A stretch of DNA of 4,405 bases from a virus (taxonomy: Duplodnaviria > Heunggongvirae > Uroviricota > Caudoviricetes): IMG/VR virus record IMGVR_UViG_2778261156_000001. The stretch is one strand, 5' to 3'. The notes under the pieces are model-generated. The model made no database searches. It worked only from the letters and a program-made list of their open reading frames with translations, and was not told the DNA's origin. Position numbers and translations under genes: made by a program. How positions within the stretch are numbered: the stretch's first letter is position 1; every line of letters starts with the position of its first letter. Positions 112 through 4,195 of this stretch are shown piece by piece.

Positions 112-711
112 TCAGAACTTATAACCGACACCCACGATGAAACCGTCAGTGCGCCAGTCGCCACTGCCGGAGCCTTCATAAGCAATATCAATGGCCACGG
201 ATTCGGTCGGGTTAAACTGCACGCCAGCCCCCCACGCCAGAGACGTGTTGCTGCGGCGACCGTCATCACTTCCGGTCAGCACTTCGTGCGTTTTCCCCTT
301 GTTGTCAGTTACGCGGAGATAATCCCCGGAGAAAGTCGAAATACGGCTGTAAGCCACACCCGCCATCGCATACGCGCTGAACCATTCATTCACGCGCACA
401 GACGGCCCCGCCATCACGCTGAACCAGCGGTTACGCACGGAATCTTCATGCCAGCGGGTATCGCTGTAATGAGTCAGCTGGCGATTCTTGTCTTCTGCAT
501 AGCTGAATGACGTCACCATCCCCAGCGTGTCCGTAAACTCATAACGGTATTTCACGTTAATCCCGTTAAGATCATCGCTGCCGGGAACGTTCGTCGAGGC
601 ATGAAGATACCCCGCGCTCAGCGTGGACTGATGTTCAGACGCCCATGCAGGCGCACCGGATACGACCAGACAGATGGCTGCGGACAAAATGGCTGCACAA
701 ACTTTACGCAT
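112..711 (-). CDS. lom: Lom outer-membrane protein, Ail/Lom/OmpX/PagC family 8-stranded beta-barrel; lysogenic-conversion (moron) gene
   Basis: 199-aa ORF. N-terminus MRKVCAAILSAAICLVVSGAPAWA-SEHQ is a typical Sec signal peptide with an AxA cleavage motif. The mature protein is rich in alternating aromatic/hydrophobic residues and ends in ...GVGYKF, a C-terminal Phe typical of outer-membrane beta-barrels. Near-identical over most of its length to phage lambda Lom as I recall it. GAGAGG Shine-Dalgarno at 717..722, 5 nt before the ATG. Position immediately downstream of J matches lambda. Confidence 0.95.
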   Translation of the reverse strand: MRKVCAAILSAAICLVVSGAPAWASEHQSTLSAGYLHASTNVPGSDDLNGINVKYRYEFTDTLGMVTSFSYAEDKNRQLTHYSDTRWHEDSVRNRWFSVMAGPSVRVNEWFSAYAMAGVAYSRISTFSGDYLRVTDNKGKTHEVLTGSDDGRRSNTSLAWGAGVQFNPTESVAIDIAYEGSGSGDWRTDGFIVGVGYKF

Positions 712-732: not shown

Positions 733-760
733 AATAAAAAAGGCGTCATTCCTGACGCCC
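733..760 (-). terminator. Rho-independent terminator between J and lom
   Basis: Seen in sequence: inverted repeat GGCGTCA (742..748) / TGACGCC (753..759) with a 4-nt loop. On the minus strand the RNA would read GGGCGUCA-GGAA-UGACGCC followed by UUUUUUAUU (complement of 733..741). It lies 22 nt past the J stop codon (782..784) and about 20 nt before the lom Shine-Dalgarno. Confidence 0.6.
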
Positions 761-781
761 TTTATTGGGGTTATAACAATT

Positions 782-3700
782 TCAACGAATACTGATGCCG
801 GAAGCAGCCTTTTTGGTCACAATCACCGTACAGTCGGTGATATTGCCTGCCCCCTGATTGCCTTTCTGGAAAATCTTAAACTCCAGAGTGACGCTTCCCC
901 TGCCACTCGGCATATCAATAACCGCACTGTAACTACCGGGAATGGCCCCTTTAGTTTCTCTGGATGCGATTAATACGCCGTTTTTGCGAACTTCAAAACC
1001 ATACCCCGTGTACCTTGTACCTCCCGAGTTATCACCACTTCCCGGATCGTCATACGCTATACCGTTAAAGATAATGGGCGGAATAATGATTTGACGGTCA
1101 AAGTTATGATCATCGCTGATGGTGACTGTAACCGTCCCGTCTGGTGTTTCCGTGTTACCCCACGTACCAGCCTTTTTCGGGAATGATTTGGATACTGTTT
1201 TAACAAAATCACCTCTGACCTGATTCGCTTCCAGCATACCCTTAATCGTACAGTTTTCATTTATCGTGACGTTGTTGAGCGTCCCGGAGTTCGCATTCAC
1301 ACTGCCACTGATATCCGCATTTTTAGCGGTCAGCTTTCCGTCCGGTGTCAGGGAAAATACCGGTGGATTTCCACCACTGGTAATGGTGGGGGCCGTCAGG
1401 CGTTTGAGGAACACGTCGTTCATGAATATCTGGTTGCCCTGCGCCACAAACATCGGCGTTTCATTCCCGTTTGCCGGGTCAATAAACGCGATACGATTGG
1501 CGGCAACCAGAAACTGGCTCAGTTTGCCTTCCTCTGTATCCTCCATGCTGAGGCCAAGCCCCGCGACATAATGCTTACCGTCTTCGGTCTGCTCAATTTT
1601 GACGCCCCACATGGCATTCCATTTATCGTTGGCGTCCTTCCACTCTTTCGAAAACTCCTCCAGTCTGCTGGCGTTATCCTCCGTCAGCTCGACTTTTTCC
1701 AGCAGCTCCTTGCCGAGATGGGATTCGGTTATCTGGCCTTTGAAAAAATCCAGGTAACCTTCCGCATCATCGCTCGCCCGACCGACAGCCTCCACGAATG
1801 TCGATTTGCCGACGGTGTTCACACTGCGAACGTAAAAATAATAATCATGGCCCGGTTTGATATTGATACTGGCGGCTATCCAGTACAGCGCCGTGCCAAG
1901 ATAGCGGGCTGTGGTTTCAACCTGCCTGATATCCGCAATCCGCTTTTCCGAGAACCAGAACTCAAACTGTACCGTCGGATCATAAACCGCAAGATGCGGC
2001 GTGGCGGTTATCTGAAAATAGCCCGGCGTCAGCTCAATCCGCGACGGCGCTGTCGGTGCGGCAATCCGGAACGATACCGATGCCGGATCGCCCTGCTGCC
2101 CCCAGGCATTTGCCGCCCGGACTGTTAGCCTGTAGTTTCCCAGCGCCAGTTGCGTGAAGCGGTATGTGGTTTCCGTCGTCCGGGCCGTGCTGACCAGCCG
2201 CTCACTGCCATCATCCGCTGCCACGGTCAGGCGAAGCATAAAGCTCACCCCCTTCACCACCTTCGGCGTATCCCAGCGCGCCAGCACCTGGTATTCCCCG
2301 CTGTCTGCGGTGACTTCTGCGGTCAGATGCTGCACTGCTGGCGGCGTGACACCATTCACCGTGCCGCTCTGGTCACCGTCAAAGTGCGCCCCGTTATCCA
2401 CGATGGCTTCTTTCTCCGGTACATGCTGCACGGCAGTGATGGCATACGTGCCGTCATCGTTCTCACGGATACTCACGCAGCGGAACAGGCGCTGGCGCAG
2501 CGTCGGCAGCTTCAGCCCCCATACGCTGTATCCGGCAACGCCGTCAGGAACACGGCTCACTTTTACCTTCACGCCGTCGGTGACGGACTGGACCTCCACG
2601 CTGACCGGATTGCCACTTCCGTCAACCAGGCTTATCAGCGTGGTACCGGAGGATGGCAGCGTGATTTCACGGTCGAGCGTCAGCGTCCGGGTCTGGCTGT
2701 TCACCGCCAGCACGCGCCCGCCGGTGCTGATCCCCGCATAGTCATCATCGCAGATTTCAATAACATCACCCGGCACATGGCGAAGCCCTTCGGCACCCAC
2801 GCTGAAATCCACGGTCTGCGTCTCCAGCAGCTCCGTTTTAATCAGCCACAACCCGGCGCGGTGTGCCTGCCCCCGGCTGGTACAGCCAAAGGCATCCATC
2901 TTCGTGACGTTACGACCGTAACGGGCAATGGCCTGCGTGTCCTCCACAAGCTCTGTCGCCGTCTCCCAGCCGTTATCCGGGTCAATCCAGTTCACCTCAA
3001 CGGCATTATGGCGGTCCTTCAGGGCGCTGAAGCTGTAGCGGAACGGCGCGCCATCATCCGGCATCACCACATTACTGCGGTTATAGGTCCACACCTTATC
3101 CGACGGTCGGTCCTGCACGAACGTCAGCGTCTGCCCGTTCCATACCGGCATACAGCGCATCGCCGAGCAGAAATCACTGAGAACATCCCACGCCTTACGC
3201 TGTGTGGTCAGGTAGGCATTACAGGTGATGCGCGGCTCCGTGCCGCCAAAACCATTCGGTACCAACTGGTCGCAGTACTGGCCGATAACGTACAGCGCCC
3301 ATTTGTCCACATCTGCCGCACCAAGACGTTTCCCCATGCCGTAGCGCGGGTGGGTCAGCATATCCCACAGACACCAGGCCATGTTGTTGCTGTATGCTGG
3401 CTTTAACGTTCCGTCCCAGATACCGCTGTATTGCCGCGTCTGCGGGTTATAGTTCGACGGCACCTGCAGAATACGCCCGCGCAGATGATAATTACGGCTC
3501 ACCTGCTGGCTGCCGAACTGCTCCGAATCCACCCGTACGCCGACCAGTGCCGTGTTCGGGTAGCACTGTTTCACATCGATGATTTCGGTGTATGACGACC
3601 AGAGCGTTTTGTTCTGCAGCTGGTCTGTGGTGCTGTCCGGCGTCATCCTGCGCATCCGGATGTTGAACGGGCGCGGCGGCAGATTATCCACCACTACCGA

Positions 3701-4195
3701 GGCCAGATACTGCGAGGTGGTTTTGCCCTTAATGGTGATGTCTTTTTCCGTCACCCAGCCACCATTACGTTGTATCTGAACCAGCAGGCGAACTTCCGAC
3801 GGATTCCTGTCCCCCTTTGAGGTGGTTTCCACCAGTGCCTGCACACCGAAGGTAAAGCGCAGACGGTCGATGTTTGCCGACGTGATGGTCCGGGTGATCG
3901 GCGTGTCATATTTCACTTCCGTACCCAGCACCGTCTCGGAGCCGGAGGATTCAAATCCCTCCGGCGGTGACTGCTCCTGCTCACCGGCCCGGAACACCAC
4001 CGTGACGCCGGAGATGTTGGTATTCCCCTCACTGTCCAGCACCGGCGTACTGTTCAGCAGCACGCTTTTTAATCCCTCCACAGGACCTTCAACCGGCCCT
4101 TCACTAATGGCATCGATCACACTCAGCAACTGCGTGGATTTGAGGTTGTCCTTCGCTTCGCGCGGGGTATGCCCCTTACTGCTGCCTTTACCCAT
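782..4195 (-). CDS. J: Tail tip attachment / host specificity protein J (central tail fibre); the C-terminal ~160 aa form the receptor-binding domain
   Basis: Single 1137-aa ORF (3414 nt including stop) filling most of the window. N-terminus [34 protein letters not shown]... and long internal stretches match lambda gpJ as I recall it. The size matches the ~1130-aa lambda protein. GGAG Shine-Dalgarno at 4204..4207, 8 nt before the ATG. Flanked by I upstream and lom downstream exactly as in lambda. The coding strand is GC-rich (~57-65% over 2400..2520) with a strong coding-frame signal. Confidence 0.97.

Follow-up and report, generated by a model that had tools for sequence, protein, structure and literature searches.

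The h434 allele has been in use since early lambda genetics, and swaps of the gpJ C terminus have already been exploited in engineering. When lambda J is replaced by the 434 gene, the phage binds OmpC, the receptor of 434 (PMC11101478, PMC3509688), and the central fibre of 434 is described as OmpC-targeting (PMC12502783). The classical h434 host-range allele is carried by lambda h434 imm21 (OM418627; PMC9119081). Swapping the C-terminal part of gpJ suffices to make lambda particles target OmpC in place of LamB (PMC11338833).

In lambda and phage 21, single J substitutions are known to bring in a further porin or to alter porin use, and phage 21 gains OmpC and then OmpF use by a few J mutations (PMC11336670). 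Phage 21's receptor-binding domain (RBD), which is about 45% identical to that of lambda, also uses LamB (PMC11336670). Of 23 natural OmpC variants, the two engineered chimeras A8 and 1A2 each accept a different set (PMC11338833). In lambda gpJ, the receptor is contacted by four bottom loops, L1–L4 (PMC11101478).

The DNA analysed here, called the window throughout, is a stretch of 4,405 nucleotides, and its source is an E. coli prophage. Its features, all on the minus strand, are as follows.

782..4195, minus strand: gene J for the tip attachment or host specificity protein, an intact open reading frame of 1137 aa with the stop codon at 782–784.
1274..4195, minus strand: lambda-like J backbone, residues 1–974, with hub, FNIII/Ig domains, helical shaft and beta-prism.
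1226..1273, minus strand: crossover zone between the backbone and the divergent module, residues ~975–990, placed by maximum chi-square and windowed DNA identity.
785..1225, minus strand: 434-type RBD, Ig-like, Pfam Ig_GpJ_C, residues ~991–1137, assigned by Pfam, identity, AF2 and Foldseek.
1139..1177, minus strand: HV1, residues 1007–1019, predicted distal loop with near-zero column conservation across the allele classes.
998..1066, minus strand: HV2, residues 1044–1066, predicted distal loop from alignments, with the model loop at 1051–1058.
926..970, minus strand: HV3, residues 1076–1090, predicted distal loop poorly conserved across the classes, with the model loop at 1081–1086.
836..877, minus strand: HV4, residues 1107–1120, predicted distal loop from alignments, with the model loop at 1112–1116.
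733..759, minus strand: hairpin resembling an intrinsic terminator, after J, which reads GGCGTCA-GGAA-TGACGCC and then TTTTTTATT on the J strand.
112..711, minus strand: lom-like gene for an Ail/Lom outer-membrane beta-barrel of 199 aa (PF06316, E 1e-123).

We propose that the RBD is a phage 434-type (h434) allele on a lambda-like J and most likely binds OmpC, a reading to which we assign a probability of about 0.85. The module itself is a classical and very common allele that is already known.

The lambda-like synteny of I, J and lom is kept in the window, with the I C terminus upstream of J and lom downstream, and a 99.9% identical chromosomal locus (L010) holds the whole tail and head operon. 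The lambda-like gpJ domain series is complete, and its six Pfam models (FNIII-A_GpJ, Phage-tail_3, Ig_J, Ig_J_second, Phage_Tail_Tip and Ig_GpJ_C) occur in the expected order, all far above their cutoffs (E 1e-25 to 1e-43). They cover the hub (Phage-tail_3), FNIII-A, two Ig_J domains, the tail-tip fibre prism and the C-terminal RBD. Over the full-length gene, the DNA is 97.4% identical to mEp460 J and 94.4% to phage 434 J, and lambda h434 imm21 (OM418627) matches the whole gene at 94.3%.

The preliminary description of this DNA held that J is lambda-like up to residue ~970 and carries a swapped specificity module in its last ~163 residues, and it suggested alignment with lambda gpJ and structure prediction as checks. 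The first part is borne out by 96.8% identity to lambda J over residues 1–973, with dS of 0.195 and dN/dS of 0.08 for the backbone. The backbone is likewise 97.3% identical to that of 434 and 97.6% to that of PhiR47_1. The divergent part had been placed exactly, from the start of residue 975 at 1273 to the end of the last sense codon (R1137) at 785.

The alignment with lambda locates a sharp identity breakpoint. In the DNA alignment, the maximum chi-square of 866 falls at gene nt 2965, namely codon 989 or window ~1231, while the highest value among 1000 permutations is 28. Mismatches rise from 5.4% ahead of the breakpoint to 53.5% beyond it, and identity in 30-nt windows drops from 0.80 (1255–1226) to 0.50 (1225–1196). 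The earliest amino acid differences from lambda J are at residues 974 and 979, and the DNA crossover lies ~40 nt inside the 5′ boundary of the earlier placement.

Beyond the breakpoint, the C-terminal domain has a global identity of 0.338 to lambda J, or 38.7% by tblastn (E 7e-22). All four anchor motifs that had been named as shared (ENCTI, T.TVT..DDH.FDRQI, DMP.GRG.V.L and KK.A.GIS) are present in both proteins. The synonymous sites of the RBD are saturated (dS 2.8; dN/dS 0.21), and GC3 changes from 70% to 48% across the junction.

The C-terminal ~150–160 aa are supported as an exchanged receptor-specificity module, because the breakpoint is sharp, dS is saturated in the module only, and the module and backbone types are uncoupled. 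The window, lambda and PhiR47_1 have backbones 97–98% identical, yet they carry three RBD classes only 34–40% identical. Conversely, the RBDs of Ayreon and Stx2c_JNE110649 are 100% identical to each other and sit on backbones 76% identical, and the window-type RBD is found on backbones 76–84% identical. The classes are also discrete. Among 243 phage records, 74 have RBDs of at least 90% identity, 169 fall below 60%, and none lies between 60 and 90%. The 434-type RBD is present in 2,111 of the 5,426 complete E. coli genomes (~39%).

Positive selection classically acts on receptor-binding domains, and the differences from lambda cluster in four loops, as would suit a C terminus that diverged in place from a lambda-like ancestor under rapid diversifying selection with no module exchange. 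This alternative is rejected and effectively refuted. The RBD dS of 2.8 against 0.195 in the adjoining 2.9 kb, the dN/dS below 1, the GC3 step at the junction, and the uncoupling of RBD from backbone in both directions all speak against it. Within the 434-type class, dN/dS is low (0.08–0.24) and therefore indicates purifying selection on a conserved function. Homologous recombination within the conserved stretch that encodes the beta-prism (~1226–1273) would have exchanged the module and joined the 434-type RBD to the lambda-like backbone.

The GC content had also been offered as a sign of the exchange. The hand counts behind this were accurate, with 46.8% over 782..1260 and 62.0% over 2400..2520, and 785..1273 has 46.6% against 57.9% in the rest of J. 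All other 489-nt windows of J are at or above 51.7% (mean 58.4%, sd 3.1%). However, part of the 46.6 versus 62.0% contrast is not allele-specific, because GC declines from about gene nt 2250 in every J allele, lambda included. The allele-specific part is 46.6% here versus 54.8% in the equivalent segment of lambda.

Every RBD class examined is poorer in GC than its own backbone, 46.6–54.8% versus 57–59%, and the phage 21 class at 47.2% is as low as the RBD in the window. The low GC is therefore a trait of the module pool and does not point to a recent exchange in this phage, and we reject it as a sign of recent foreign import. Thus the GC shift stands as real but is weaker evidence for a module than had been stated.

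As to its identity, the RBD is 98% identical in amino acids to that of mEp460, 93.5% to those of 434, Stx2c_JNE110649 and Ayreon, and 34% to that of lambda. It aligns with 434 without a gap, with alike loop lengths and an equal protein length of 1137 aa. It is not a lambda-type LamB-binding allele, as seen from the 34–38.7% identity, the indels in three of the four variable loops and the saturated dS. Nor is it of the A8 type that binds OmpC (PDB 9wcb), being ~50–52% identical to it over the aligned RBD.

The fold was addressed by prediction. PF12421 (Ig_GpJ_C) matches J residues 1001–1136 with 89 bits at a gathering cutoff of 26.2. The AF2 model of the RBD monomer has a pLDDT of 79.8, with some loop blocks at 64–77. 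The search for homologous proteins gave mostly assembly fragments, and these and the frameshifted or fused ORFs P0022, P0044, P0069 and P0073 were dropped ahead of modelling.

The top four Foldseek matches of the model are 8xck and 8xcj, the lambda gpJ RBD (E 4e-16), and 9wca and 9wcb, A8 gpJ with and without OmpC (1e-14 to 4e-15), and the fifth has an E of only 4e-4. By phmmer against PDB, A8 gpJ (1e-53) and lambda gpJ (2e-43) are matched. The predicted fold matches the Ig-like fold of the LamB-binding domain of lambda, with the core strands and proximal loops (DDHxFDRQ, NG and DMPxGxG) conserved and the distal loops HV1–HV4 all different.

In the predicted beta-sandwich, the four variable segments fall on every other loop, which fits the contact loops L1–L4 of lambda (PMC11101478). 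The text of that paper gives no residue numbers for L1–L4, and the loops were therefore assigned from conservation and the AF2 secondary structure. HV1 is an inter-strand loop in the model and 2 aa longer than in lambda. HV2 has a 6-aa insertion relative to lambda, and its D1055 and S1057 are replaced by N and P in 434, mEp460, Stx2c_JNE110649 and Ayreon (the last taken via its RBD identical to that of Stx2c_JNE110649). HV4 has a 6-aa deletion relative to lambda and holds Q1110 and G1115, unlike 434. From the model, HV1–HV4 probably form the receptor contact surface.

The 94% identity to 434 leads us to infer that J in the window uses OmpC and not LamB. This agrees with the earlier expectation of a different outer-membrane receptor, while the LamB variant that had been named as the other option is without support. 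OmpC binding spans several RBD classes (434, A8 and phi330), so the class predicts the receptor only through close identity.

In the literature, we found no receptor experiment for the exact J of the window or its closest relative mEp460. The papers mentioning mEp460 and the PhiR prophages of ECOR (PMC9836094, PMC13190303) contain no outer-membrane receptor assignments for J alleles, and the supplements of PMC11338833, searched with the C-terminal peptide of the RBD to learn if the OmpC chimera 1A2 carries this allele, contain no gpJ protein sequence. A 2026 preprint on receptor prediction (10.64898/2026.04.02.716166) was uninformative, since it deals with a GpJ of the Drexlerviridae type and explicitly excludes the C-terminal domain of lambda as non-homologous.

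It is very improbable that LamB, or a variant of it, is still the receptor of the domain. The fold and family are shared with the LamB-binding domain of lambda, and the LamB use by the divergent RBD of phage 21 (PMC11336670) means that low identity alone does not exclude LamB. However, the 434 allele, to which the domain is 93.5% identical, reportedly makes lambda use OmpC, and all four distal loops are unlike those of lambda in sequence and three of them also in length.

Quite unlikely, too, is that the domain is a 434-type sub-variant that recognises another porin or only some OmpC variants (for instance OmpF, a phage-borne porin of the Lc/NmpC type or particular OmpC alleles) through substitutions in the contact loops. 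It would draw on the 11 RBD substitutions against 434, with D1055 and S1057 missing from the four other 434-type alleles compared, on the different OmpC ranges of A8 and 1A2 (PMC11338833) and on the stepwise gain of OmpC and OmpF by phage 21 (PMC11336670). Against it are the 93.5% identity to 434 and 98% to mEp460, the loops without indels and the purifying selection within the class. We favour OmpC as the probable receptor of a 434-type RBD.

Under the OmpC reading, the central tail fibre has three RBDs at its tip, and these would most likely dock on the trimeric porin OmpC rather than on LamB. The docking would then cause the tail tip to open and the DNA to be ejected, as in lambda. It is unlikely, but conceivable, that the sub-variant residues (D1055/S1057, A1009, R1099, Q1110 and G1115) make this J differ from 434 in its range of porin variants and that it pairs with an Lc-like porin that another part of the prophage encodes. 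If so, entry would be via the host OmpC, whose place in the lysogen would be taken by a phage porin to which this J cannot bind. The association of J allele and porin gene would then be under selection.

The divergence from lambda does not stop with J. A C-terminal module had been correctly marked out in the preliminary description, but the divergent block is ~1.05 kb long and takes in the J module, the J-lom spacer and most of lom, and similarity to lambda DNA picks up again only at about window 185. The hairpin at 733..759, read on the minus strand, was also obtained from a scan, and both 434 and mEp460 have an annotated terminator at the corresponding place. The lom-like protein has only 46% amino acid identity to lambda Lom. 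PhiR47_1 has a lom ~90% identical to that of the window and a different J domain. By these comparisons, lom is part of the block diverging from lambda, yet separable from the J module.

The receptor of a lambdoid J is predicted by its last ~150 residues and not by overall similarity to lambda. For a prophage J that is ~97% lambda-like over most of its length, as here, the prediction would be OmpC instead of LamB. It bears on how host range is predicted, on how lambda-based delivery particles are designed and on how phage-resistance mutations are read, with ompC or ompR as the genes to look at instead of lamB or malT. The main value is in annotation, with no new biology.

Among the known systems, the RBD-LamB structures of lambda gpJ (8xcj, 8xck, 8iyk) share Ig_GpJ_C and the Ig-like fold with the window, as well as the core strands and proximal loops. 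They differ in the 34–39% identity, in the LamB receptor and in the loops, with +2 aa in HV1, +6 aa in HV2 and −6 aa in HV4 of the window. The A8 gpJ chimera (9wca, 9wcb; Brödel et al. 2024, PMC11338833) has a natural non-lambda RBD on lambda J, and its complex with OmpC is solved. A8 gpJ is the top PDB sequence match of our RBD and a fold match with a TM of 0.71 (normalised to target). However, it represents a different allele class nearer to that of phage 21 and Stx2_EH1910 (…VVVMKKSTAGISI), so its contact residues are not directly transferable.

The closest sequenced phage is mEp460 (JQ182728), whose RBD differs at three residues (D1055N, S1057P and I1108V). The J of 434 or h434 (OL657226; OM418627) is the same as that of the window in length, domain order and breakpoint against lambda, and also in the lom allele and the terminator. 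Its RBD differs by 11 substitutions (E980Q, N991T, T1000A, S1004A, A1009V, D1055N, S1057P, R1099G, I1108V, Q1110H and G1115R). Of these, D1055, S1057 and G1115 are at predicted distal-loop positions, A1009 and Q1110 sit on predicted strands, though inside a hypervariable segment or at its edge, and R1099 is in the conserved PSGRG loop. Against 434, the RBD dS of 0.36 is above the backbone dS of 0.19, so the RBD in the window is not a copy of that of 434 itself.

The minus strand of the window carries part of a lambdoid tail operon with the following features.

Above 4256, minus strand: 3′ end of gene I (ORF map)
782..4195, minus strand: gene J, intact, 1137 aa
733-759, minus strand: hairpin GGCGTCA-GGAA-TGACGCC, then TTTTTTATT, 22 nt 3′ of the J stop codon
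112..711, minus strand: lom-like gene, 199 aa, an Ail/Lom protein (Pfam, E 1e-123)

The J protein has the full gpJ set of Pfam domains in order, FNIII-A_GpJ, Phage-tail_3, Ig_J, Ig_J_second, Phage_Tail_Tip and Ig_GpJ_C. The last of these, described in Pfam as 'Tip attachment protein J, C-terminal receptor binding domain' (RBD), covers residues 1001-1136 with 89 bits against a cutoff of 26.2. A plus-strand ORF antisense to the GC-rich part of J (2150-3406, 418 aa, TTG start) is most likely an artefact, since antisense frames have few stops where the coding sequence is high in GC3.

Several E. coli chromosomes have prophage segments 99.9% identical to the entire window. In one of them, the UMB200201_11 chromosome (locus L010), the region lies inside a complete-looking lambdoid prophage adjoining a partial icd copy. 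Beyond stf/tfa, at the prophage end by this icd copy, L010 also has a retron-type defence pair of a putative HNH endonuclease and an AAA ATPase (12367-14356), and near the lysis cassette it has iss, a gene for a bor-like serum-survival lipoprotein (40451-40744).

The preliminary description took the J C-terminus for a swapped specificity module on a lambda-like backbone. The region does lie where it was placed, with residue 975 beginning at 1273 and the end of the last codon at 785. Residues 1-973 match lambda J at an identity of 0.968. In the global alignment residues 985-1137 reach 0.338, and the last 163 aa are 38.7% identical by tblastn (E 7e-22). All four anchor motifs listed in that description are present in both proteins. 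The maximum-chi-square comparison with lambda DNA locates an identity breakpoint at gene nt 2965 (codon 989, window 1231), so the crossover is about 40 nt inside the 5′ edge first proposed. Mismatch rises there from 5.4% to 53.5%, with a chi-square of 866 against a maximum of 28 among 1000 permutations. The crossover falls in the conserved beta-prism-coding region.

Three independent lines bear out the module exchange. One is the dS against lambda, which is saturated at 2.8 inside the RBD but 0.195 across the adjoining 2.9 kb. Rapid amino-acid change in place is rejected by this saturation and by the RBD dN/dS of 0.21. The RBD is an old lineage that has evolved on its own and is attached to a backbone nearly identical to lambda's.

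Another line is that the type of RBD is not tied to the type of backbone. Between the window, lambda and PhiR47_1 the backbones are 97-98% identical, but the RBDs belong to three classes 34-40% identical to one another, whereas Ayreon and Stx2c_JNE110649 share 100% identical RBDs on backbones of only 76% identity. The third is the discreteness of the classes. Among 243 phage records with a match, RBD identity is at least 90% in 74, below 60% in 169 and in between in none, and the same gap recurs in a large protein database.

Even inside the class of phage 434 the two parts differ in history, because the dS against mEp460 is 0.019 in the RBD and 0.10 in the backbone, while that against 434 is reversed (0.36 and 0.19). 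This implies repeated recombination within J. Some J backbones are also longer than the 1137-aa form through insertions of ~23-95 aa, as in Ayreon (1165 aa, locus L007), phage 21 (1160 aa, L005) and PhiR49_2 (1232 aa, L009), recognized as matches of 93% coverage in two pieces. Judged from these sequences, the backbone length variants appear to combine freely with the RBD classes.

Low GC content had been offered as another sign of the swap. The hand counts proved right (46.8% for 782..1260, 62.0% for 2400..2520), and all other 489-nt windows of J are at or above 51.7%. The drop argues less for a swap than was supposed, since each RBD class measured lies below its own backbone. The RBDs have 46.6-47.9% in the 434 type, 47.2% in phage 21, 49.9% in the PhiR47 type, 53.0% in Stx2_EH1910 and 54.8% in lambda, against 57-59% in the backbones. 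Moreover, GC declines from ~60-65% to ~50-54% in all J alleles including lambda, beginning at gene nt ~2250. This zone (gene nt ~2250-2700, window ~1500-1945) encodes the helical shaft and the beta-prism well upstream of the breakpoint, and the fall is common to the alleles as a compositional trait of the distal fibre, not specific to one of them. Low GC as a marker of recent import into this phage was rejected, being a property of the module pool.

The DNA divergence from lambda extends beyond the J stop codon into the J-lom spacer and most of lom, and similarity returns at ~185; the window Lom and that of lambda share only 46% identity. Compared with PhiR47_1, lom is ~90% identical and the difference is confined to ~760-1290. 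Hence the J RBD and lom are separately exchangeable blocks that move independently. Terminators are annotated in 434 and mEp460 at the site equivalent to the 733-759 hairpin. The plus strand, the only one on which the scan reported this hairpin, also has a T-rich run after it, though a weaker one, so its activity may be bidirectional.

The RBD is 98% identical to that of mEp460 J and 93.5% to those of phage 434, a Stx2c phage and Ayreon, all with equal loop lengths and zero gaps. The record 'lambda h434 imm21' (OM418627), whose host-range allele is the classical h434 (PMC9119081), matches at 94.3% over the full J gene. The window RBD is thus the already known h434 host-range determinant. The allele occurs in 2,111 of 5,426 complete E. 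coli genomes and also in E. albertii and Shigella.

Structures of this RBD family are solved with LamB and with OmpC (PDB 8xcj, 9wcb). The PDB sequence search found the gpJ chimera A8 (1e-53) and lambda gpJ (2e-43). The AlphaFold2 model of residues 945-1137 (mean pLDDT 79.8) has the fold of the lambda gpJ RBD. Its top four Foldseek matches are the lambda central fibre closed (8xck) and open with LamB (8xcj), both at E ~4e-16, and A8 gpJ closed (9wca) and open with OmpC (9wcb); the fifth is eleven orders of magnitude weaker. From the Pfam, PDB sequence and Foldseek matches, the RBD has diverged from its lambda counterpart as an allele of one Ig-like domain and is not an unrelated fold. The analysis shows allele identity and fold, as it does the mosaicism.

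Variation across the allele classes concentrates in four segments, HV1-HV4 (residues ~1007-1019, 1044-1066, 1076-1090 and 1107-1120), separated by conserved strands and the conserved loops DDHxFDRQ, NG and DMPxGxG. In the model they hold alternate inter-strand loops of the beta-sandwich, with the conserved loops between, a topology by which the four variable loops all come to lie at the same end. They match the description of the lambda RBD, whose four bottom loops L1-L4 enter the LamB trimer; on binding, the three domains move apart and the tail tip is opened (PMC11101478).

Lambda with J replaced by the 434 gene binds OmpC, the 434 receptor (PMC11101478, PMC3509688), C-terminal gpJ swaps suffice to turn lambda particles from LamB to OmpC (PMC11338833), and a study from 2025 takes the 434 fibre to target OmpC (PMC12502783). 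We infer that the window copy uses OmpC and that the variable loops take part. Most likely, three 434-type RBD copies would dock onto trimeric OmpC through HV1-HV4, and the docking would trigger ejection as in lambda.

Eleven RBD residues differ between the window and 434, six of which the model places as follows.

D1055 and S1057: loop HV2
G1115: loop HV4
A1009: short predicted strand in HV1
Q1110: predicted strand just before the loop in HV4
R1099: conserved PSGRG loop

In HV2 (window 1000-1066) the window has GSGDNSGG, whereas 434, mEp460, Stx2c_JNE110649 and Ayreon have GSGNNPGG; D1055 and S1057 are absent from all these four. Among 2,114 E. coli records only 56 have DNA matching the window RBD at ≥99%, and GSGDNSGG, which lies in a predicted contact loop, is thus a minority sub-variant. 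In lambda and phage 21, a few J substitutions can bring in a further porin or change one for another (PMC11336670), and natural OmpC-binding domains are unlike in the OmpC variants accepted (PMC11338833). Given this and the differences from 434, the exact porin-variant range of the window RBD could differ from 434's. A literature search for receptor data on mEp460 or the PhiR prophages found none.

Outside the window, in the 99.9%-identical L010 chromosome, the prophage has a porin gene annotated 'ompC' (42535-43617) between Q (quuD) and the lysis genes, ~18 kb from J. In a listing of carriers, an Lc-like porin is common to many but not all phages with the window-type J domain. The carriers with this domain include PhiR11_1, PhiR34_1, ev099, ev207, Perceval, Kati and mEp332, and those without it PhiR63_2, PhiR29_2 and Lambda_4C10.

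The L010 porin is 100% identical to 'OmpD' of PhiR34_1 and PhiR68_2, and 90% identical to Lc of phage PA-2 (J02580). In classical work PA-2 reportedly uses OmpC, and its Lc porin is said to replace OmpC in lysogens. The L010 porin could be the partner of an OmpC-using phage in receptor replacement. Should the PA-2 behaviour apply here, it would suit a phage that uses OmpC and shields its lysogen by such replacement.
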